DNA of 64,000 nucleotides from Lophium mytilinum. Lineage: Eukaryota. The translations under genes were made by a program, and so were the position numbers. This document shows, piece by piece, positions 17,656 through 34,896 of the stretch; position 1 is the first letter of the stretch; each line of letters opens with the position of its first letter. Under the pieces are notes generated by a model that worked only from the letters and a program-made list of their open reading frames with translations, was not told the origin of the DNA and did not search any database. The stretch is taken from contig MU004181.1 of NCBI GenBank assembly GCA_010093605.1, positions 1,550,001-1,614,000 of the forward strand, read 5' to 3'.

Positions 17656-20565
17656 TCACATGACTACGCACTTGAGAAGTTTCCGTCCTGGACTGGCGTC
17701 TTCTGTAGAAGGGTGAACGTGTTGCAGCCGGCTCTGGGCATGGCTCTGGACACGGCTCTGCAAGCGACTCTGGGCCCGCGGAGGCGCCGTCATAGGCTCG
17801 TTTTGTGAGTGAACTCCTGCATGTGGTACAGTAATTAGAGATGGCAGCATGGGCCGCCTCGTGTGCTGGCCTCCACTCGCGGCACTCAGACCATTGTTAT
17901 GGACACTTAAAGGCTCCGCAGATGCAACGCGTCTGGTCCCCCGTCGACTTAACCTCCGATCTAGCGACGCAAGTTGTTGCTGGGAGGGATGATGTCGCGC
18001 TGGCCTAGCATGTTCGCTAAGCATAGGGTTTGCGTCATTTCTCATGTTTGCTAGCGTTGGTAAATGGGAAGTCAAATGTGACGGACGTCGAGTTGGAGTA
18101 GCGGCTGATCGAGGGAAATACTCCTGCCCTGGGTTCGCAGATTGTGGAGAGGAAGGACTAGCGCGCGACCGGCTTCCTAGCGCAACTCGCGAGACAGGAG
18201 GGGATCGAGGTCCTGGATATGTGCTTGGGTGCACTAACGATGGCCGACGCTCTGGAACATTCAAAGAAGGAGTCTCCGTGGACGAGGCCATTAACACCGC
18301 ACTGGGTCCTATAGGGATAGCTCGAGAGGAGCTAGTCGGGGCCGGTCGTCCGGTTAGGGGAAGCACTGGTGGAGGAATCAATGGCTCGGTTGACATGGAG
18401 TCTGTAGGTGTTTGAGCCGGTTGAATGATTGAGGGCAAAGGTGGAACATTAGTTGGCATGGGAGGAGGTAGACGAAGAAGGGAGCCTATATTGGATCGAG
18501 GATCCACCGGATGTGTGAGACTGATACTAGCAGCTTCAGGTCCAGGAGGGTCCGCATTAGGAGTATATGGTGGAGGTGGCGGTACCCAGTTATCGGCATC
18601 GGACTCATGAGGCATCTCCCGCGTACCATCTGCCCTCCTATAATCCAGCGGCCGGAAAGGAAGGGCGCGAAGGTGCCTCCTATTGGCAGGAGAGACGGCT
18701 GCCACGGTTGCTGCCCGCTGAAGAGACATCTGAGATCGCGGCTGGGAGTGATCGTATGGGACCTCGAACGCGGCTTGGGCCTCGTCCCCGTCGAGCTCAT
18801 CGTCTTCGGCTTCATCTCTGGTAATGGTTGGCAGCGGAGGCATCCGCTCAGAGGCTGCTGCTTCTCGGCTGGCTGTTGTCTGGGATCTGCCGAGAGCCCT
18901 AGAGTTTCGAGCACTACGCGTAGCCGCCCGATCAACCGTTCGGCGTTGCGCGACTGTTCGGGTCCGGACGAGCTCGACCTCACGCTCGAATTCGATAGTC
19001 TCTTCGGGAAGCTTTTCTCCTGGTAGGAGAGTATCAAGATCGTATGTCGTCCTGATCGGGACAGGGTTATCTGTGATGCCCGTTTTGGACCGGTCGAAGT
19101 CCATGACCACTACGACGCCACTTGAGCTATGGGACAGGGGCCGCAGCTCTTCATCTCCGCCAAAAGTAATACCACGTGACACATTTCCTATTGCAATTAG
19201 CCGTTCAACATTGGGATTGTCCGGGATGGTTGTCCAACGCAAGGCAGCTATTTCTTGATGCATGGAGGCATCTCCCTGAAGCACAGGTATGCAAGCACAC
19301 GGTTCGAGTGGTGATTGTTCACTCCCATGCTCCGCGTTGAGCTTGTATGATGGGTCTTCTCCAATTGCGGACTCGGGAATGCGATAGAACCAAATGCTCG
19401 TTGTGTTCTGCTTCCTTAGAGCTATGGCGACATGATCCGCCTTCGGAGAAACTGCCGGCAGAGCATCATCCAGAAATTCAGCACGTGTCCACCGCTGCTC
19501 TTCCGGGAGGAAATCTTTTTGTTCTGTGAATGTCAAATCTGCCAAGTCGAAAATGCCCCAGGAGCCCTCTGTTGCATCAAAGGCAAACATTTCGTTGATC
19601 TGGCCGGTGGACGTATCGGGGAGGAGACTCGCCTGGCGAGCAACTTTGATCTTTTCAGGGAACAGTATCTGTGTGGTCCATGCCTTGTCTACCTCTTGTT
19701 GAATTGGCAATCCTTCTTCGGTGAATGGCCCATCGAAAGCGCCGTGCACGGTGAAGATGGTGGACGTGCCTGACTGCCGGGCAAATGTGGTTGCCAGAAG
19801 GGTCCTTCCGTCGTCCGAGAATTGCAAGGTATCCATCCGCGGGGATGAAACATATCTTTTGTTCGCCTCCGTTGCGTTCGGTGCCAAAGACATGACCTCA
19901 ATTCCGAATTCATTTCCAGTGGCCAGTACGAAGCCTTCAGGGGTCAGAGCTATAGACTTAGAGTCGTACTCCAGCAGGATGGTCCTCTCTTTCACAATCG
20001 GCTGATCTCCTTCGCTAGGGAGTCGGTACACGTCTACTTTGCTAGGAGTAGAGAGCACAGCGAGCAATGTTCCATCGTCCAATATATCCAGGGCCACCGG
20101 CTTCCTCCGTACCTCGAGTATGCGTGTGAACAGTCGCGGCAGCTGGGTAGCATTAATTAGCCAAATGTTGGTGGCTCCGTATATGGCGATGAGCGATCCT
20201 TTACGAGAGACAGAGAAGCCAAACGACTCGGGTAGGGCAGACGACGAGGCGGTGCTGGAGATGAGGTCCAAGATGGTGGTTTTGGGGCTGGAATGGCCCT
20301 GGCGCAGCTTTGCGGGTTGTTCGTCGTCGGTCATGGCCGATGTGCGTGCGGTCGAGTTCGCCGACAGCTCAGAGGAGGAGAGGGAGGTGTCGACGGTAGT
20401 GTCGAGGGGTACGTCGAGGTCGTCGGTCGAGAGCGCAACAGAGGACGAGGAGCCGTCGTGATGGACGACGCTGGGGACGTCTTCACTGCGCTCCTCATCT
20501 CTCCCAGCGTCTGGCACGGTGGGAATGCGGACATGCAGGGAGGCCAGGGAGGCTTTTCGGTCCAT
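17656..20565 (-). CDS. Fungal beta-propeller (WD40-like) protein with Pro/Ser-rich tail, PPxY motif and C-terminal CaaX
   Basis: 969-aa single ORF with blade-like repeats (ILDDGTLLAV, LTPEGFVLATG, FSDDGRTLLAT, VSPKADHVAI), PPPPPY, and terminal KCVVM*. Confidence 0.75.
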   Translation of the reverse strand: MDRKASLASLHVRIPTVPDAGRDEERSEDVPSVVHHDGSSSSVALSTDDLDVPLDTTVDTSLSSSELSANSTARTSAMTDDEQPAKLRQGHSSPKTTILDLISSTASSSALPESFGFSVSRKGSLIAIYGATNIWLINATQLPRLFTRILEVRRKPVALDILDDGTLLAVLSTPSKVDVYRLPSEGDQPIVKERTILLEYDSKSIALTPEGFVLATGNEFGIEVMSLAPNATEANKRYVSSPRMDTLQFSDDGRTLLATTFARQSGTSTIFTVHGAFDGPFTEEGLPIQQEVDKAWTTQILFPEKIKVARQASLLPDTSTGQINEMFAFDATEGSWGIFDLADLTFTEQKDFLPEEQRWTRAEFLDDALPAVSPKADHVAIALRKQNTTSIWFYRIPESAIGEDPSYKLNAEHGSEQSPLEPCACIPVLQGDASMHQEIAALRWTTIPDNPNVERLIAIGNVSRGITFGGDEELRPLSHSSSGVVVVMDFDRSKTGITDNPVPIRTTYDLDTLLPGEKLPEETIEFEREVELVRTRTVAQRRTVDRAATRSARNSRALGRSQTTASREAAASERMPPLPTITRDEAEDDELDGDEAQAAFEVPYDHSQPRSQMSLQRAATVAAVSPANRRHLRALPFRPLDYRRADGTREMPHESDADNWVPPPPPYTPNADPPGPEAASISLTHPVDPRSNIGSLLRLPPPMPTNVPPLPSIIQPAQTPTDSMSTEPLIPPPVLPLTGRPAPTSSSRAIPIGPSAVLMASSTETPSLNVPERRPSLVHPSTYPGPRSPPVSRVALGSRSRASPSSPQSANPGQEYFPRSAATPTRRPSHLTSHLPTLANMRNDANPMLSEHARPARHHPSQQQLASLDRRLSRRGTRRVASAEPLSVHNNGLSAASGGQHTRRPMLPSLITVPHAGVHSQNEPMTAPPRAQSRLQSRVQSHAQSRLQHVHPSTEDASPGRKLLKCVVM

Positions 20566-22915
20566 CTCACTGCGGCGTCAGTAGCATCAAGATCGACGCG
20601 GAGGGGCAGGCGGAGGTGTGAATGACGACGCCGGCCAGCATTGCTTCGGGCTGAGGTTTCGATCGAGATGCAGTACGACGAGAGGCTACACGATCATGGG
20701 CGATAGCGGGCGCGTCGTGCATGCTCTCCTGGTTATGGTAATGGTTGTCAGTCGTCGGCAAGGCCCAGCTTTAGCCTTTCTTCGAAAACAGGGGCCTGAC
20801 GAGTTCTGAGCTTGTTTAGGTTTTTATATATAGATTCGTCACGTGGGGCCAGCTAACTCCACAATACCTACATAGCAACACGCCCGTGGTATGGCCGGGT
20901 GTTTCGACGCGTCCCTCTTTACCTTGTTCCATCTCGCACTCGAGGGGCACAGCGACCCCTTTCTCTAAGGCACCTCTCAGCGTACTTCAGTCCCCAGCCC
21001 TCCCCACAATCTTCGGCCATGCATGGATGTTACCGCCGTCATCTTCGCGGTTAGGCAGGGTGCGGGGCTGTGAACGCTCCCGCTCTCGATCAAGTCACAT
21101 GTATCAGCCTATCCAGGCCTTTCAATCAGCGACCCAACCCTCAAGCGGCGAAGGGCCTATGACAGCGGCCGTGGGTCGAGGGTGTGCAGCTGCGGCTTAT
21201 GTTCTCTTCATCCAATCTAAATGTACGGCCTCATTAGCTTGGCCTCATCCATCATTCTACTCGATCCGCGCCGCATCTATGCCTGCATCACATGCCTACT
21301 GTCGAGGCGCAGTGCGGCCCTGATATAACGCTGCATCTCCGAGGGTGGGCATACGCGCCGCTCTATCGTATTAACAAAACACGCTGCTCCATTCTTGAAA
21401 TGGGAAGGTGGATTGATAAGAGAAGGCGATTGCGTGTGCCTATGATGTGGCAGTGTTTTGATCTTCCGGAGTAGGAACGCGAACATCCCCTACTCAGTTG
21501 TCGTACTTTCCAATCGGTGTAAATTCGAAAATGCTAAAGCAAACAGGATTACAGGTATAAGTTCATCTCATTACTAGTTTCCAAACCTGTGTATTCATAA
21601 CAGAGGTTGCCACCGTCATAGAGTTGATTTCCGTATTCAGACTCTTTACTAACTCACCCAGCATCTTCTACCTTTGCTTTACGCGGAGATACCTCTTCGC
21701 CCTTTTTTATTTGCAAAGTTTTACAGATCTAACAGCATAAAACAGTTTCTGTTAAACACGGTGTAGACGCAGTGCCCAAATGTGCGGCATTTTATTCCCT
21801 TCCCGGTTTTTTGCAAATAACAACGGTTGCAATCATCCTGTTTATTCGAGTCTTTGGGACCCAAATAATAGAACTTATGCATGTGTCGCCTCGCTTGTCC
21901 AAATGCGCCTTACGCCGAGGTAACCCTTTGGGTCATTTATGTGCAAATTTCAACGAATTCAACCGCATATATCTGTTATTCAACACAGCGTGAATGCGAT
22001 GTGCCGCCTCCTCTACGTGCTTTTCACGCCGCAGTGCCTTATAACCCATTATATGCATCGTCCTACATGTTTTATTCGACATATTATGGACTTGTTACGT
22101 CACGTCTGCTAGTCAACTTTCACGTTGAGTGTCAACTCTTTGCCCGGTTCATATACATGTTCCCACGGATCTAACCGCGTAGATGGTTTCCGTTAGACGC
22201 AGCGGGGACGCGGTGTACTGTCGCCTAGTTAATGTTTCTTACATAAACGAGAGCCTTCAAATCAGGGTCATAGAACTAGGTTAGAAAAGAGACGCTGAAG
22301 CACCTCTTCCAGAAACTACATCACTTAGTTGTGAAAAGTAACAGAATTGACCGCATCGAACAAGGTTTGTGATATGTGGCGTATACGTTGCGTGACACTT
22401 GTTGTAGTCGCTCTTTGTCCCAAAAGTCGCACGAATGGATATCACATGCATTTTATAATGGTTTTGACGTATCTGATATGACTTCGAAGCACCCCTGGGC
22501 CCACAATCACAAACAAAATTCTATAAGAGGAGACGGAGACTTAATCTCTAGGCTTAGAATTCAGCGATGATGCAACAGAGTCTAAATCACACGTGTTGCA
22601 AAAGGACAATGAAGGGCTCTACTCGTAGTTCCCTAGATCACACTCGGTGCTCCAGACTCCTCACACTTTTGCTCTCCAAGGTTTGCTGTAATGGAGCGTG
22701 AGCGACGCTGGGAAGGGTTTGATCGCCACTGCGTAGTGTTTGCAAGATCAAATGAAAGGTAGTAAAGCACACTTTATTTGCTAGGCTAGTAGGCATGAGA
22801 TATTTAAAGGGATTTATGATGAAGTAGCTATAAAGCTAGTCGTCATCTGGATGAGCTGAGTCTTACAATTTGCCCAATTTCTCACGAAAGAGGAAGATAT
22901 CATCCTGAACCAACC

Positions 22916-29917: not shown

Positions 29918-30318
29918 TGTCCCTGCGTCTTGTCATGAAGCGTAGCAGCTGGGGGGACGGCGCAACGGCTGGGAGAGGAAAAAAGGGGTCTTTTAGTGAT
30001 TGGATGCTGGCAGTCCGGCAGTACTCCGAGGATATTCGAATTACCAAGGCGCTATCGATAAGATCGATCAAGGGTCCGCTGGAGCAGGGGCTACCCTGCA
30101 GGGCTGCCTCACCACCAAACGCACGTCACTCGGGCATTTCGGTGAATGTCACGATCAAGCGCTCCAGTTCACACACTTTCACCCCTCACGTGACCTTTTA
30201 CTTGTTCTTATATTAGCATTGGGAACAACTATTCAGTGGCCCTGCTCGCGTTTCTCCCCCACCTCCAGCCTACAGTACCCTCTTTCACTGGACAGCACAC
30301 GACCCCGCCAATATCGCC

Positions 30319-31640
30319 ATGAGGCTCCTCAAGCAACAGATCGACAAAAAGAATGGTTCGGGCTTTGCAGTGCTTCTCCCAGAGGAGCCAGAGGATATGG
30401 TATACACCAGCTCTCCAGCGATCCTTCACATGGACTCCAATACTGACATCATCCAAAGTGGCACGCCTACAACCTCATTCAGCCCAACGACTTCCTCCGC
30501 GCTCGCGCAATGCGCCGGATAACCAAAGAATCCGAGTCCGGGTCCGTCACTTCGGTGCGTGTGCCTATCGACCTGACAATCATGGTCAGCTCGACCGACT
30601 TCGACGTCGGCTCCGGCCAGCTGCATGTTGCCGGTAAGGTGTCCGCCGAAAACGAGCACGTCAAGCTGGGGAGCTTCCATACCCTGGACTTGGAGCTGCA
30701 GCGGAAATTCACACTGGAGAAGGCAGATGGGTGGGATAGCGTGGCCATCGAGATGCTCAAGGAGGCCGTAGACACGAGTAAGAGAGCACAGGTTTACGCT
30801 GTGGTGATGCAAGAGGGGCTAGCCAACGTGTGTTTGATCACCGAGCATCAGACTATACTACGGCAGAAAGTGGAGGTGGCGATACCTAGGAAACGAAAGG
30901 GGGGTATCGATGGTCATGACAAGGTACGTCTAACACATATTTCTGCCTGAAAGACTTAGACTAACGGAATTCTTTATTAGGGTCTCGACAGATTCTTTAC
31001 TACTCTTCTGCGAACGCTTTTAAACCACATCGACCTCCCATCCCAAACGCCACCATACACACCAGTTCTGCTCGCCTCGCCGGGCTTTCTCGCATCCGCC
31101 TTTCAAACATATATCAAGACCACCGCAACCGCAACAACTAACAAGCCGCTTCTTGCCCTCCTACCTTCTATTCTCATCGCACACTCCTCTTCAGGCCACC
31201 AGCACGCATTGACAGAAGTCCTGTCATCGCCTGCCGTACTAGCAAAACTAGCAGATACGAAGTACGCGCGCGAAACAGCACTCATGGACAAATTCTTCGA
31301 GCTCCTAAGAAAAGACGACGGTAGGGCATGGTATGGACCGAAAGAAGTAGAACAAGCGGTTGAAAAGGGGGCTGTGGGCCGCGGAGGCGGTGTCTTACTG
31401 ATATCGAATGCTTTGTTTAGAGCGCAGAACGTGGCGGAGAGAAAGCGATGGGTGAGTCTTGTTGATCGCGTCAAGGACGTTGAGGGCGGCGAGGTTCGCG
31501 TACTGAGCTCATTGCACGAAAGCGGGAAGAGGTTGGAAAGCTTGGGGAACGTGGCTGCTATCTTGACATTTCCACTAGAGGATCTTGACGAAGATGATGA
31601 AGAGGATGGAGGCAGAGCGGAAGGTGAAATGGAATTTTAG
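30319..31640 (+). CDS. DOM34: Pelota/Dom34 ribosome rescue factor, 3 exons
   Basis: PEEPEDM|WHAYNLI, HVKLGSFHTLDLE, VVMQEGLANVCLIT, LLASPGF, AWYGPKEV, HESGKRL...VAAILTFP. Confidence 0.95.
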
Positions 31641-31989
31641 AGAATCATGTTGTTGATGTGATATCCAACTAGTTATTCAACCAATCTTATGTGTATCAAG
31701 GCGAAAAGGAGCTATGTACCAAGACCTGTGTCCAACTCTCTCCCCAGTTAGCTACCAGGAAGGGAGCTACGGATATCAGAGGGCAGTAGCGAACCTCGGA
31801 GGAAAGCACATCCATAGTTGTGACATGCCCACTCCGTCTATTCTCGAGGCCATGTGTTAGTTTGCGTTCCTTGAAATATGGTGTCCAAGACCACTCACCT
31901 CTTGCAGTCTCGAGTCCTGTTCACTGACGGTTCCACCTCCACAGAAGACCTCGAGCTCTATCCAATGCCAGAGATCTACATCCAGGCTT

Positions 31990-33693
31990 TCAACCAAACT
32001 GTGTGGAGAAAGACTCATCATCATCTAAGAACGAGAAAACGTCCTGAGTTGAGATTCCCAGTTCTTTGAGCGATGGGTCTAGTCGAGTGTGCTCGGGCTT
32101 GTAGAGCGACGAAGAACGGCCTTGACGAGGGGCTGGACCTGTCTTGCCCTGGTGGTTAGCGGCCGATAGAGCATGCCGAGGAGGAGGCGGCATTGAAAAT
32201 GTAACGCCGTAGCTCTCCTCGCGGGAAGGTTCCTTCTTCGGGAGAATCTTGTTGTCCTGGGACCTGAGTTCCTCCAAGTCTTCGGCGGAGAAATCGAGAT
32301 CCTGGGTGCAAAAGCTGAAACCAAAGCTCATCTTAGGTGAGTTCATGGGTGAGACTGTCGTGTCTGCGGACAATTCTCGCGCGATTTGCGTGCCGCTGGT
32401 CAGGAAGTCATCCCAACAATCCATGTCAACCGCGAGATTCGAGTCTCTGGGGGTGGAAGAAGGTAGTGATTTGGAGGTTCGCGGAGCTGGCTTTTTGAAC
32501 ACGTCCGCCTGTTTTGGGGTATTATAAACACTCTTCAGAGCAATATCTTCGAGAGAGCGTTCAACTTCATGCGCTGCTGTAAGGAGTGATTGCGTCTTGG
32601 TAGGCGAAGAGTCCGTAATCACCTTGACAGGGAACTGCGTCCGAGTGTAGGTAAATTGAGCATCGTTCTTGTAACGCGCTGCAAACGGTATCCGAGTGAG
32701 GAATGTCTTCCTTCCCTGTAGATGCCCATCTACATATATGCCGTCCAGTCGCTCCTTCTTGATCTCAACAATCCGCACATGACTGCCCCTAGACAATTGG
32801 CAACTAGAGTCTAAGCCTCGCAGCAGGGCAACAGTACAACCAACTTTTAACCGAAGCCTATGCAAAGGTAGTTCTGGATGTTTCAGCTTGTAAAGCAGTG
32901 CAGGGTTGGGGTCCCATTTGACTTTGTTGGTAGATGCATCTTCCGACAGCAGTTCAACCAACGGTCCCGGGAGCGCTTCAAACAGGCGTTCGATCGTCTT
33001 GTCTATTGGACCGTGCAAACGGACAAACAAAGCCTCATCTGGTGGACGGGGTGTACTAGTTCGCGGTGTCTGCAGAATAGCTCCCGCCGAAGAAGGTCGA
33101 GGCATGCTCGCATTTAACTTAGGCTCCTGGACAAAATCCATGAGGGTCTGATCATCTAAATCCCAAGGTTCTGGAGCTGTTTGTTTCTCGGCCTTTGATA
33201 GGGCTTTATCTTTTGTTGTTTCTAGTTTCCTAAAGCTGGTTGAGTTCAAGGGCTGCTCCTGGGGCTTCACGTCGAAATCTAAATCCTCATCCACGTCCCA
33301 CGGCTCGTTCTCAGATTCATCCATTAGCGCCTCGATTGTGTCGATTTCGACTTCCTTCTTCTCCGGAGCGGCTAATCTTCCGCACCGCAAAAAGGTCTCC
33401 ATTCCCGTCTTCAACCTCTTCTGCGTGTGACTGTATCCGGCTAGTTGGGTCGCCTTTCCTATTCCAAGTCGTTTTCTTGCTTGTCGCTCTTTCTCGTCTT
33501 TCTCTGCTTTTTTTGCTTTCGCTAATTTCTTTCGGGTCTCTAGTTCTTTGAGTCGGTCTGCCCGTTCTAGCTCAATTGCAGCACGCTCGATCTGTCTAAG
33601 TTCGCGATCCGAGAGCCGTGGGCCATTTTTCTTGAAATCGGCTTTGACCTGTTTCGCTGTCTGGGGGCGAACACGACCTGAAAGGACTGCCAT
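31990..33693 (-). CDS. Hypothetical protein: basic coiled-coil N-terminus, isolated Pif1/Helitron-type helicase 2B segment, disordered TQ-rich C-terminus
   Basis: 567-aa intact ORF; aa ~222-359 contain LPLHRLRLKVGCTVALLRGL...RIP...RTQFPV. Confidence 0.75.
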   Translation of the reverse strand: MAVLSGRVRPQTAKQVKADFKKNGPRLSDRELRQIERAAIELERADRLKELETRKKLAKAKKAEKDEKERQARKRLGIGKATQLAGYSHTQKRLKTGMETFLRCGRLAAPEKKEVEIDTIEALMDESENEPWDVDEDLDFDVKPQEQPLNSTSFRKLETTKDKALSKAEKQTAPEPWDLDDQTLMDFVQEPKLNASMPRPSSAGAILQTPRTSTPRPPDEALFVRLHGPIDKTIERLFEALPGPLVELLSEDASTNKVKWDPNPALLYKLKHPELPLHRLRLKVGCTVALLRGLDSSCQLSRGSHVRIVEIKKERLDGIYVDGHLQGRKTFLTRIPFAARYKNDAQFTYTRTQFPVKVITDSSPTKTQSLLTAAHEVERSLEDIALKSVYNTPKQADVFKKPAPRTSKSLPSSTPRDSNLAVDMDCWDDFLTSGTQIARELSADTTVSPMNSPKMSFGFSFCTQDLDFSAEDLEELRSQDNKILPKKEPSREESYGVTFSMPPPPRHALSAANHQGKTGPAPRQGRSSSLYKPEHTRLDPSLKELGISTQDVFSFLDDDESFSTQFG

Positions 33694-33966: not shown

Positions 33967-34896
33967 ATGGCTACAGATTCACAGCTCATTCCCCAGAAGC
34001 AGTATCGAAAGTCCTTTATTCCTCTTGAATCAAATCCGGACGTATTCACAGAGCTCATCCACGAACTCGGAGTGTCTTCCACTCTATGCTTCCAAGATGT
34101 GCTTTCACTTGACGATGAAGAGCTATTAGCATTTGTGCCTCGCCCTGCACTTGCGCTGGTTCTCGTGTTCCCGAGTTCAAGCACCTACGAAACACATGTA
34201 GCGGCGGACGAGGCTGCGCGACCGGACTATACTGGTAGTAGCGATGACGAAGATGTGAATTGGTTTAAGCAGACCATATATAATGCCTGTGGGCTTTATG
34301 GCATCCTGCATGCCGTTTGCAATGGGAAGGCACGTGAGCATATAGGTATGTGTGTTTCTTGGGATGCTTTAATGATAGACACCGGACAAGACCAGCCCAA
34401 GAGCCCTAACGGCTCAGTTCAATTGCTGCCAACCCCTGATTACGCATCTAAAGTGTGCCTACAATATGAGAATTGTAGTTTTAGAAACCCTCATCGAGGC
34501 CATAGGTCTAACATCATGATAGCACTCAACTCGACGCTTTCGGATCTACTGGCGAAAGGCTTGCTACTTGAGCCAGAGGCCCGAGCCAGAGTCCTAGAGG
34601 ACAGCGCGGAGCTAGAATCTGCATACAGGGTAGTCGCGCAGAAGGGAGACACAGAGCCACCCGAGAACCCGGAGGAAGTAGTGGACTTTCATTATGTCTG
34701 CTTTGTCAAGTCGCACAAGAACAACCATCTCTATGAGCTGGACGGGGACAAGAAGGGGCCAATTGATCGGGGTGCTATTGATGAGGACCAGGACATGCTT
34801 TCACAAGGAGGCTTGGAGCTGATACGGGAGTTCGTTGACCGCGAAAACGGCGGAAACATAAACTTCAGTCTCATGGCCTTGGTACCCGCAGGGTAG
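33967..34896 (+). CDS. YUH1: Ubiquitin C-terminal hydrolase (UCH-L3/Yuh1 family, peptidase C12)
   Basis: FIPLESNPDVF, KQTIYNACG (catalytic Cys), FHYVCFV, LYELDG. Intron 34346-34522. Confidence 0.9.
   Translation: MATDSQLIPQKQYRKSFIPLESNPDVFTELIHELGVSSTLCFQDVLSLDDEELLAFVPRPALALVLVFPSSSTYETHVAADEAARPDYTGSSDDEDVNWFKQTIYNACGLYGILHAVCNGKAREHIGMCVSWDALMIDTGQDQPKSPNGSVQLLPTPDYASKVCLQYENCSFRNPHRGHRSNIMIALNSTLSDLLAKGLLLEPEARARVLEDSAELESAYRVVAQKGDTEPPENPEEVVDFHYVCFVKSHKNNHLYELDGDKKGPIDRGAIDEDQDMLSQGGLELIREFVDRENGGNINFSLMALVPAG

Follow-up and report, generated by a model that had tools for sequence, protein, structure and literature searches.

Why does an apparently ordinary gene of Lophium mytilinum carry, within an unbroken reading frame, a stretch that resembles one part of a Helitron helicase, and what could such a stretch be doing there? 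The question was raised by a first-pass annotation of the window, i.e. the whole 64-kb stretch of DNA analysed here, which considered the stretch a piece of transposon co-opted by the host and proposed to check this by HMM and structure searches, a search for orthologues without the insert in other lineages, ortholog synteny and dN/dS. The best explanation of our results as a whole would be a domesticated fragment of a Helitron helicase serving as a non-catalytic binding module, a reading to which we assign a probability of approximately 0.78. The Helitron origin and the domestication of the segment, taken on their own, are highly probable.

A helicase fragment in a single-exon host gene

The reading frame of the host gene lies in one exon on the minus strand (31990–33693) and encodes 567 aa before the stop codon; its product (P0001) has 109 homologues at E ≤ 1e-3. 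A 3527-nt contig of run X1, from which three introns are gone, covers the whole ORF without differences, and four GT..AG-type joints are counted in and around the neighbours. Its joint 31837>31899, which reads CT..AC on the plus strand, marks a 61-nt GT..AG intron of the minus strand past the stop codon (31838–31898), in the 3′ UTR of the host gene. Run X1 is labelled ‘RNA?’ as a guess and was used only for what its spliced contigs bridge, not for expression level; in these terms the segment is transcribed within the host mRNA.

The annotation had placed the ORF between DOM34 and YUH1, and its neighbours bear this out. The convergent neighbour (30247–31640, plus strand; introns 30399–30457 and 30922–30978) matches Pfam eRF1_1, eRF1_2 and eRF1_3 and has an eRF1-type fold; from these domains and the earlier label we take it to be Dom34/Pelota-like. 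The divergent neighbour (33967–34896, plus strand; intron 34342–34518) is a ubiquitin C-terminal hydrolase of the UCH/YUH1 type (Peptidase_C12, 199 bits). The intron joints of both neighbours were likewise read from run X1 contigs. Among the 20 long ORFs of the window that were tested, 11 match a Pfam family, none of these 11 being a transposon family, and the segment is present in a single copy in the window and once per contig in the loci compared. Internal stops are absent from the window ORF and from 23 of the 24 insert-bearing loci, the exception being L022, a short contig with three in-frame stops within the segment. The description of the gene as intact and not transposon-like is supported.

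The segment itself extends over aa 223–358 (FVRLHGP...FPVKV; 32620–33027, minus strand) and corresponds to the helicase stretch that starts just past motif IV, runs via the SH3-like 2B domain and stops just before motif V. The aa 222–359 given originally convert exactly to 32617–33030 of the minus-strand ORF, and all the strings quoted with them occur in the translation. Pfam PF21530 (Pif1_2B_dom) matches aa 267–310 (E 9.7e-7) with 28.9 bits, its curated cut-off being 23.9. Apart from this match, P0001 has a single Pfam row at E ≤ 10, a sub-threshold DUF4681; a precomputed PF21530 mark is present on many of the orthologues. With phmmer against PDB chains, the Helitron transposase Helraiser (7lcc_A) was found at E 2.8e-5, aa 229–359 aligning onto residues 1289–1421, the other four rows having E ≥ 0.32, and the profile of the family scored Helraiser at 45.8 bits (E 4e-11). 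Since PF21530 exceeds its cut-off and Helraiser is recovered by both phmmer and profile, the match lies well beyond chance.

Structure comparison leads to the same fold. One of five domain-only AF2 models was confident (pLDDT 75.0, compared with 39.5–48.8 for the other four), and this predicted model has the SH3-like beta fold including the connecting strands. The best Foldseek match is again Helraiser (E 7.2e-9, 26% identity); 29 matches have E ≤ 0.001, those listed being Helraiser and Pif1 chains. VIA gives Z 10.2–13.7 to 28 Pif1/Helraiser entries, the next tier being Z ≤ 6.8. Identification of a Helitron/Pif1 2B-type segment is thus supported by Pfam, by sequence and by structure searches.

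The remainder of a helicase is missing. Similarity to Helitron helicases ends at FPVKV, just ahead of motif V and where the annotation had put it. No match to PIF1 (PF05970), AAA_30, UvrD_C or Helitron_like_N was obtained in P0001 with Pfam at E ≤ 10, nor does the protein contain the Walker A string G..G.GK[ST]; a P-loop-like AANHQGKT was taken as chance because it lies in a non-conserved disordered stretch. Neither P0001 nor any of the 20 long ORFs tested in the window has Helitron_like_N (PF14214), and the motor part of P0206 has no match in the window outside 32560–32907. As judged from its sequence, P0001 is without a helicase motor and a Rep domain, in agreement with the earlier statement that neither Walker A/B nor HUH Rep motifs are visible. 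Because domains 1A and 2A are absent, the piece would be unable to hydrolyse ATP or unwind DNA.

The surrounding host sequence (all coordinates on the minus strand) has a layout of its own. The N-terminal basic helical region (aa 8–105; 33379–33672), ancestral host sequence that includes ATQLAGYSHTQ (aa 81–91), is predicted by AF2 to form helices at 13–26, 29–76 and 80–103 with pLDDT up to 93; its median net charge is +11 (118 members), its mean pairwise identity 58%, and it is common to the relatives without insert. It is followed by an acidic disordered linker (aa 106–222; 33028–33378; pLDDT <50, median net charge −19, mean pairwise identity 30%) in which lie the Trp-acidic motifs EPWDVD (aa 130–135; 33289–33306) and EPWDLD (aa 175–180; 33154–33171). 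Beyond the segment, the family alignment delimits a conserved host motif block (aa 420–480; 32254–32436), CWDDFLTSGTQIARELS plus CTQDLDFSAEDLEEL, with CWDDF at aa 426–430 and with W427, F430, T435, Q436, I437, R439 and L473 invariant; insert-less relatives carry this block too. A proline motif MPPPP (aa 501–505; 32179–32193) corresponds to LMPPPP in the consensus of the wider, insert-less host family. The C-terminal motif (aa 540–567; 31993–32076), GISTQDVFSFLDDDE...STQFG, has a mean pairwise identity of 52% in the family alignment; S548, T549 and Q550 are nearly invariant, and the insert-less version reads FGLSTQ.L.D..DD.

All the short motifs listed by the annotation (EPWDVD, EPWDLD, CWDDF, SGTQ, CTQD, STQD, STQF) were found in the translation. 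P0001 contains eight TQ compared with 1.76 expected from composition, and one SQ compared with 2.07. SQ/TQ cluster domains of ATM/ATR (Mec1/Tel1) substrates have at least three S/T-Q per 100 residues, a density reached here by TQ 435, TQ 463 and SQ 478, which sit within 44 residues. Hardly any variation, if any, is seen across the family in the TQ at 82, 435 and 549 or in Q91 and Q464. A possible resemblance of DLDFSAEDLEEL to acidic RPA70N-binding motifs such as that of ATRIP was considered but not adopted; readings of the motifs as a PIP-box, an MDC1-type TQXF or FHA ligands were dropped for mismatched spacing, judged by eye. The TQ and Trp-acidic motifs are a property of the older host gene and not of the insert.

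Constraint on the segment and its possible role

The segment is the best-conserved region of the protein, with a mean pairwise identity of 61% compared with 19–30% for the linkers that flank it, and 24 of its positions do not vary among 20 divergent members. Its dN/dS is low, 0.03–0.11 in nine distant pairs, values obtained with NG86 at dS of 1.16–1.48 and hence near saturation (dS >1); in eight of these nine pairs its dN is the lowest of four regions. In the near-identical trio L001/L003/L012 the dN/dS of the segment is 0.28–0.42, no lower than that of other regions. These figures point to purifying selection on the transposon-derived part over a long time, and a segment kept for so long under strong purifying selection probably serves the host now.

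What the service might be can be proposed from the layout of the protein. The segment, whose median pI is 9.6, would be a folded basic binding module inside a scaffold of short linear motifs. In the mechanism we prefer, it would keep the protein attached to DNA where single strand meets duplex, in the manner of the 2B domain of Pif1, or else to a partner protein, and other factors would meanwhile be recruited by the older TQ and acidic motifs. DNA-junction binding in particular is a tentative and rather doubtful element of this proposal. The putative DNA-damage or replication scaffold of the annotation is a notion suggested by the resemblance of the motifs. A more specific version, according to which the host protein would be a genome-maintenance adaptor phospho-regulated through its TQ motifs, and the capture of 2B would have added recognition of junctions or of a factor engaged by Helitron helicases, seems to us unlikely; if true, a fungal replication-stress or repair pathway particular to Pleosporales and related groups would have acquired a DNA-handling surface of transposon origin.

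Another role, which we consider clearly unlikely, would be that of a Helitron antagonist, a decoy or dominant-negative 2B titrating a factor or a DNA intermediate of rolling-circle transposition. Defence-type conflict usually entails fast or positive evolution, and the dN/dS of 0.03–0.11 and short branches of the segment, indicative of strong purifying selection, fit poorly with it. A transposase-derived segment without catalysis would suit such a function, Helitrons are reported in fungi (PMC5148889, PMC4289320) and Helitron-like contigs came up in the metagenome scan that also recovered the family; however, the segment is only 26–42% identical to present-day Helitron pieces, and the host protein in which it sits is older, with its other motifs in place before the segment.

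Origin of the segment and its probable gain by the host gene

A 2B segment could also derive from the fungus's own cellular Pif1/Rrm3, through partial duplication or exon shuffling. The fold matches Pif1 as well as it does Helraiser: in VIA, Helraiser gives the longest alignment (131/140) and the highest identity (25%), but by score alone its Z of 12.4 ties with those of bacterial and human Pif1 (Z up to 13.7). The PF21530 model likewise spans both groups. Sequence scores, in contrast, separate them, the family profile that detects Helraiser at 45.8 bits retrieving no human, yeast, Candida or bacterial Pif1 chain at E ≤ 10. As a control, the 2B segment of a Rep-bearing Helitron behaves alike, with 87.8 bits for Helraiser compared with 21.3 for human PIF1 and 14.3 for ScPif1. 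The nearest neighbours are of the Helitron type as well. When family patterns were run against metagenome contigs, the four non-family loci retrieved were all Helitron-like, and three of them (L029–L031) carry Helitron_like_N, PIF1 and Pif1_2B in one orientation. Identity of the segment to the Helitron-type fragment P0214 is 32% over 136 aa for P0001 and up to 42% for Pleosporales-type loci, and the strings LPPHRLRLK.G and R.QFP are common to the segment and two Rep-bearing Helitron loci.

In a tree of segments only, the 34 family members form one clade against six Helitron segments (SH-aLRT 100); branch lengths have a median of 0.11 over all 40 rows and range from 0 to 0.9 for the six Helitron segments. 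Leads from the Protein Atlas were Pif1_2B fragments at 0.89 and, for an insert-less member, ‘hypothetical protein, Ascomycota’; a search for longer or fused relatives with aa 222–362 returned none, which is weak evidence. The trees being of family and Helitron sequences, the choice between a Helitron and a cellular origin is based on score gaps against PDB chains and on nearest neighbours rather than on a joint tree. On these grounds a cellular Pif1 source is very unlikely, and the preference of the annotation for a Helitron-type segment is borne out by the sequence scores.

The history of the host gene can be followed in relatives with and without the segment. More than 100 insert-bearing orthologues were found, and the 25 named ones are Dothideomycetes; they include Cenococcum, which was checked, and the other 24 are presumably Pleosporales. 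The wider family without the segment shares the N-terminal basic helix, the Trp-acidic motifs, the TQ motifs and MPPPP. Its named members, Tothia fuscella and Verruconis gallopava (both Venturiales) and Alectoria fallacina (Lecanoromycetes), provide the orthologues without insert that had been suggested as a check. Among 266 sequences, 122 have the N-terminus and 2B and 123 the N-terminus without 2B; 86 of these 123 also have the WDDF/TQ block and represent complete insert-less relatives. Where the insert is present, a median of 329 aa separates the N-terminus from the block; where it is absent, the median is 115.5 aa. With the segment HMM, no remnant was detected in the insert-less proteins at E ≤ 1e-3. 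None of the 11 tested matches a Pfam family (one sub-threshold MFAP1 row apart), and no relative of the insert-less family was detected in the PDB at E ≤ 10. This ascomycete family is uncharacterised, and its proteins are mostly disordered.

A convergent DOM34 neighbour is found in the window, in five insert-bearing loci (L001, L003, L010, L012, L014) and in two insert-less ones (L025, L026), so that, by this neighbour, same-locus orthologues without the insert exist, as expected of a host–transposon fusion. The adjacency to DOM34 is missing in 11 insert-bearing loci with at least 1.5 kb of 3′ flank, and that to YUH1 occurs in none of the comparison loci. Sequence comparison indicates that the host gene predates the insert.

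When host sequence only was used for a tree (177 columns, 85 rows) and the Alectoria clade, i.e. one named lecanoromycete and an unnamed sister, served as root, the 43 insert-bearing rows came out as one clade inside a grade of 40 insert-less rows, with support that is good, if not starred (UFBoot 92, SH-aLRT 86). A single change suffices in 92% of 200 bootstrap trees. An initial FastTree that needed five changes had been computed from 447 mostly disordered, poorly aligned columns and was replaced by host trees of 177–179 columns; the short models P0125, P0126 and P0142 were left out of the later trees. The trees fit a single gain.

The reverse, a segment that was ancestral and has been lost from the insert-less forms (Venturiales, the lecanoromycete and others), appears most unlikely. 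Change counts on an unrooted tree do not separate gain from loss, and four short gene models near Pleosporales members (P0124, P0125, P0126, P0142) are without all or most of the segment, P0125 being P0058 minus aa 182–467 with a clean gap. For these models, genuine loss or alternative isoforms may be the explanation instead of faulty annotation, so that loss or skipping of the segment may occur. Nevertheless, the nesting of the insert-bearing clade within an insert-less grade, on the tree rooted with the lecanoromycete clade, would require many independent losses, the insert-less proteins retain no remnant detectable with the segment HMM at E ≤ 1e-3, and wherever it is present the segment is the most constrained part. 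That it is a tolerated, functionless relic, in frame by chance in a disordered linker tolerant of large length changes, is hardly credible in view of its 61% identity between flanks of 19–30%, its lowest dN in eight of nine distant pairs, its integrity in 23 of 24 loci and the window, and its 24 invariant positions in 20 members.

We therefore return to domestication of a Helitron fragment, which would have proceeded as follows. In the ancestor of a dothideomycete lineage that comprises Pleosporales, Cenococcum and L. mytilinum, and outside which the sampled Venturiales fall, approximately 410 bp of Helitron helicase coding sequence would have joined the reading frame. From its extent, after motif IV to before motif V, the captured piece would be the SH3-like 2B domain plus two connecting strands, and it would have landed in the disordered linker. 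From then on it would have passed down vertically, and no other part of the protein is as conserved. Insert-less positional orthologues, single-gain trees, low dN/dS and a spliced contig over the ORF all argue for the co-option that had been proposed.

Comparison with known systems

Among transposon proteins, DDE and piggyBac transposases are well-known cases of domestication. Our literature searches found no case of a domesticated Helitron protein; the papers returned were Drosophila papers whose titles and abstracts deal with something other than domesticated Helitron proteins, the phrase ‘domesticated Helitron’ there probably referring to cis-regulatory reuse. PF21530 was not mentioned in the literature searched, and no paper was found on the host family or on six ortholog locus tags. 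If true, our reading would describe protein-level domestication of a part of a Helitron, of which these searches returned no printed case. It would be an unusually clean case, as both the gene ‘before’ (insert-less, with the same neighbour) and the gene ‘after’ survive; the captured piece would be a defined sub-domain with a known structure, and the constraint would span a lineage rich in orders, to which major crop pathogens belong. As a natural experiment, the protein would also show what is left for a helicase 2B domain to do in the absence of its motor. The label ‘ATP-dependent DNA helicase PIF1-like’, borne by proteins of this family, would be wrong as to activity and calls for caution in annotation.

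The translocation-signal domain of the TraI relaxase, which acts by protein recognition, offers a possible analogy. It is a 2B-like helicase sub-domain with a weak fold match to the segment (4l0j, Z 5.9), and the entry title credits it with mediating conjugative transfer through type IV secretion systems, which is a task distinct from unwinding. Unlike the segment, it is bacterial and still lies within a full relaxase–helicase, and the two have no detectable sequence relation.

Fungal host–transposon fusion genes represent the same kind of event, a transposon-derived domain kept in a conserved host gene (PMC10799480). Oggenfuss and Croll 2024 (PMC10799480) name PIF1 and Helitron_like_N among the transposon-derived Pfams in such fusions, and the helicase families among their transposon-related Pfams include these two, Helicase_C and DEAD. 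P0001 differs in matching none of these four and PF21530 only, and its orthogroup could stand in the supplementary tables of that paper.

With Pif1 the segment shares the fold of the 2B domain (PF21530), with Z 10.2–13.7 to Pif1 of Thermus, Deferribacter, Bacteroides, human, yeast and Candida. In Pif1 this domain is described as facing the incoming duplex and shifting upon DNA binding (PMC4824106, PMC8053095). The segment differs in standing without the motor that 2B regulates there, and in having no similarity to solved Pif1 chains detectable with the family profile at E ≤ 10.

The closest counterpart is the Helitron RepHel protein Helraiser (7lcc), onto residues 1289–1421 of which aa 229–359 can be laid with a matching fold. 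Compared with Helraiser, P0001 is without Rep/HUH, domains 1A and 2A, Walker A/B and motifs V–VI. Compared with a Helitron, its gene may be single-copy in what looks like a conserved housekeeping neighbourhood, and it has the helicase piece fused to unrelated host sequence.

Identity of the 2B segment

The host gene lies on the minus strand at 31990–33693 and encodes a protein of 567 residues, P0001, whose translation contains all the strings quoted in the first-pass annotation. The Helitron/Pif1-type 2B segment proposed there at 32617–33030 corresponds exactly to residues 222–359 and was recovered by database searches. PF21530 (Pif1 2B domain) matches residues 267–310 with 28.9 bits (curated cut-off 23.9; E 9.7e-7) and is the sole Pfam family above its curated cut-off in P0001. 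A search of all PDB chain sequences gave one significant match, to Helraiser, the bat Helitron transposase (7lcc_A; E 2.8e-5, residues 229–359 of P0001 against 1289–1421). The lack of a helicase motor and Rep was likewise confirmed, as no such Pfam family was detected in P0001 at E≤10. The peptide AANHQGKT (residues 511–518, about 32140–32163, minus strand) agrees with [AG]....GK[ST], a loose pattern for P-loops; this is taken as a chance resemblance, the site being disordered and showing 19% identity in the family.

An AlphaFold2 model of P0001, built on an alignment of 20 family members, contains long helices over residues 13–103 and a beta-rich domain over about 232–358 (block pLDDT 74–85, with two dips), the remainder being disordered. 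In the structure search that had been suggested as a check, Foldseek with the full model returned 29 matches at E≤0.001, with Helraiser at the top (E 7.2e-9, 26% identity over 131 columns) and Pif1 chains of bacteria, human, yeast and Candida ranked below it. The domain-only segment model (pLDDT 75, pTM 0.70; just 39.5–48.8 pLDDT for the other four models) gave VIA Z-scores of 10.2–13.7 against 28 Pif1/Helraiser entries. Helraiser (Z 12.4) had the longest alignment (131/140) and the top identity (25%); the next tier comprised TraI (Z up to 6.8), RecD2 (5.8) and SH3/KOW folds (about 5). The predicted structure thus shows a Pif1-type 2B fold, and comparison of modelled folds fails to separate Helitron from cellular Pif1.

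Searched against PDB chains, the family profile finds Helraiser at E 4e-11 (45.8 bits); no chain of Pif1 is among its matches at E≤10. The same segment of the Rep-bearing Helitron L029, used for calibration, scores 87.8 bits with Helraiser, 21.3 with human PIF1 and 14.3 with yeast Pif1. Sequence scores thus do separate Helitron from cellular Pif1, the latter represented by solved PDB chains. Both its fold and its Pfam family place the segment with Pif1 2B; it is neither a helicase nor a Helitron, nor a cellular Pif1.

When metagenome contigs were scanned for peptide patterns taken from the family itself, 33 loci were recovered, four of them with segment-only matches. In three of these four (L029–L031), Helitron_like_N, PIF1 and Pif1_2B all lie in the same orientation, so these loci are Helitrons. 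Their Rep and helicase coding regions (L029:3754–8880, L030:1–3561, L031:3–3029) are distributed across several reading frames or ORFs, representing either decayed elements or intron-containing genes. The exhaustive search also retrieved P0214, a Helitron-type fragment 32% identical to P0001 over 136 residues with two gaps, and up to 42% identical to Pleosporales-type loci; similarity to P0001 stops where P0214 goes on into AFAMTINKAQG, which is motif V. Alignment of the segment with two Helitron loci revealed invariant D, L..L, P.HRLR, G, R and R.Q.P positions. Since F.RLHGP aligns by eye with the motif-IV region of the Helitron helicase, we infer that the captured piece would begin at motif IV and end immediately ahead of motif V. 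Another protein, P0206 (753 aa), contains two copies of a Helitron-type PIF1 and 2B piece followed by a Kunitz/BPTI domain; it is likely to be a chimeric model drawn across Helitron copies.

Host family and origin of the insert

A word-indexed search detected 109 homologs of P0001 at E≤1e-3, several annotated as 'ATP-dependent DNA helicase PIF1-like'. The named homologs come from Cenococcum geophilum and 24 other species, which we take to be Pleosporales. In the 20 aligned members, the N-terminal region is helical and basic, with GLATQL.GYSHTQ..GME.FL at its end; they also share Trp-acidic motifs, a 2B-like block (F.RLHGP...R.QFP.RV), D.WDDFL.SGTQIARELS, STQDLDFS..DLEE and the C-terminal FG.STQD..SFFDDD. 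On average, pairs of members are 58% identical in the N-terminus and 61% in the 2B block, against 19–30% in the linkers. In 118 members, median net charge is +11 for the N-terminus, −19 for the linker and +6 for the 2B block, the pI of which is 9.6.

Exhaustive profile searching gave 2549 proteins at E≤1e-3; among the best 150 of these, below the full-length family, were many proteins of 300–670 residues with the N-terminal region and later motifs but without 2B. Region HMMs classed 266 sequences: 122 with N-terminus and 2B, 123 with N-terminus and no 2B, and 12 with 2B only. The last are family fragments or N-terminally shorter models, together with the Helitron pieces P0206 and P0214; P0002, the closest homolog, is among the 12. 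The downstream WDDF/TQ block is also present in 86 of the 123. As to another suggested check, insert-less members do occur outside the insert-bearing group; those with names come from Tothia fuscella and Verruconis gallopava (Venturiales) and Alectoria fallacina (Lecanoromycetes). A median of 329 residues separates the N-terminus from the WDDF block when the insert is there, and 115.5 when it is missing. Of 11 insert-less proteins examined, none matched a Pfam family at threshold, and the insert-less profile had no PDB match.

Both neighbours named in the first-pass annotation were identified. An eRF1-fold gene (Pfam eRF1_1/2/3), called DOM34 and presumably Dom34/Pelota, lies tail-to-tail with the host gene, and YUH1 matches the Peptidase_C12 ubiquitin hydrolase family. 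Of 20 long window ORFs tested, 11 matched Pfam families, all ordinary cellular and none of transposons. A 973-aa open frame at 17656–20577 (minus strand) matches the uncharacterised family DUF7165 (190 bits). The same tail-to-tail position of DOM34 is found at five insert-bearing loci (L001, L003, L010, L012, L014) and beside two complete insert-less ORFs, L025 (360 aa, DOM34 56 bp past the stop) and L026 (432 aa), which supports orthology of the two kinds of gene. DOM34 is absent from 11 loci that bear the insert and have 3′ flanks of 1.5 kb or more, and YUH1 is in none of the loci; synteny is therefore just partly kept. The host gene predates the insert.

A first FastTree phylogeny (447 columns, mostly disordered sequence) needed five state changes, three of them being short gene models placed within groups of closely related Pleosporales. 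P0124, P0125, P0126 and P0142, short models near Pleosporales members, are missing most or all of the segment; P0125 equals P0058 minus residues 182–467, a clean gap. They could be mis-spliced models or annotation artefacts, isoforms or real deletions, and P0125, P0126 and P0142 were left out of later trees. In a host-only tree (177 well-aligned columns excluding the segment, 85 rows, careful IQ-TREE search, rooted on the Alectoria clade; a quick version was unrooted), all 43 rows with the insert fall together in a single nested clade (UFBoot 92, SH-aLRT 86), and a single change suffices in 92% of 200 bootstrap trees. The segment tree groups 34 family segments in one clade against six Helitron segments (SH-aLRT 100). 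As it keeps the internal order of the host tree (P0107, then the window and Cenococcum-like rows, then Pleosporales-like rows), it fits one capture followed by vertical descent.

Constraint and transcription

The ORF is uninterrupted in the window and in 23 of 24 insert-bearing loci. The remaining one, L022 (1.8-kb metagenome contig, 1001–1765), has three stops in frame inside a 12-codon stretch of the 2B segment; this copy, which also changes frame after the N-terminus, is either decayed or from a poor contig. Segment dS lay between 0.02 and 1.5 in 12 of 276 locus pairs, duplicates being L007=L008=L017 and L015=L016. For nine pairs the proposed dN/dS analysis gave 0.03–0.11 at dS 1.16–1.48, values that are rough because dS above 1 is near saturation. 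Segment dN (0.039–0.096) was the lowest of four regions in eight of the nine; the exception is L005–L006 (N-terminus 0.107 versus segment 0.158). The near-identical trio L001/L003/L012 gave a segment dN/dS of 0.28–0.42, from few changes. Strong purifying selection counts against the suggestion that the segment is a Helitron antagonist, which is disfavoured.

Sequencing run X1 is labelled 'RNA?' as a guess only. Its 3527-nt contig spans 30247–33950, skipping two GT..AG introns of DOM34; a 61-nt GT..AG intron at 31838–31898 (minus strand), past the host gene's stop, is skipped in this contig, which includes the whole host ORF with no joint and no difference. The contig must derive from spliced RNA and is uninformative on level, ends and strand. 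As it runs through both genes, the convergent DOM34 and host-gene transcripts probably overlap at their 3′ ends. A second X1 contig skips a 177-nt in-frame intron of YUH1 (34342–34518, plus strand), through which the 309-aa ORF reads straight; the true YUH1 protein is consequently about 59 residues shorter.

Possible function and known fusions

The segment, a helicase sub-domain lacking the motor, is folded and basic and lies within a disordered protein otherwise conserved as short motifs. Its Helitron-derived, catalytically dead and domesticated nature is well supported. According to two studies of Pif1 structures (PMC4824106, PMC8053095), the 2B domain faces the incoming duplex and moves on DNA binding, and its SH3-type surface could, as the authors suggest, bind proteins. 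The segment may be a binding module for DNA junctions or protein, joined to a motif scaffold. An MPPPP motif at 32179–32193 (minus strand, residues 501–505) looks like a typical proline-rich ligand, and LMPPPP is kept across the wider insert-less host family; its binding by the acquired SH3-like module would be speculation.

P0001 has eight TQ sites versus 1.76 expected. Those at 82, 435 and 549, as well as Q at 91 and 464, are conserved in the alignment, and insert-less relatives carry the same TQ motifs. This pattern is compatible with checkpoint-kinase regulation, as a resemblance and not as evidence; the cellular role proposed in the first-pass annotation, a DNA-damage or replication scaffold, similarly draws on motif resemblance.

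Among the publications retrieved by our phrase searches, none dealt with PF21530, the host family or the locus tags of that family, and none described a Helitron domesticated at the protein level. The event is a host–TE fusion of the type for which Oggenfuss and Croll (PMC10799480) screened; the helicase Pfam families named in the available extract of their paper do not include PF21530, the family of the segment.
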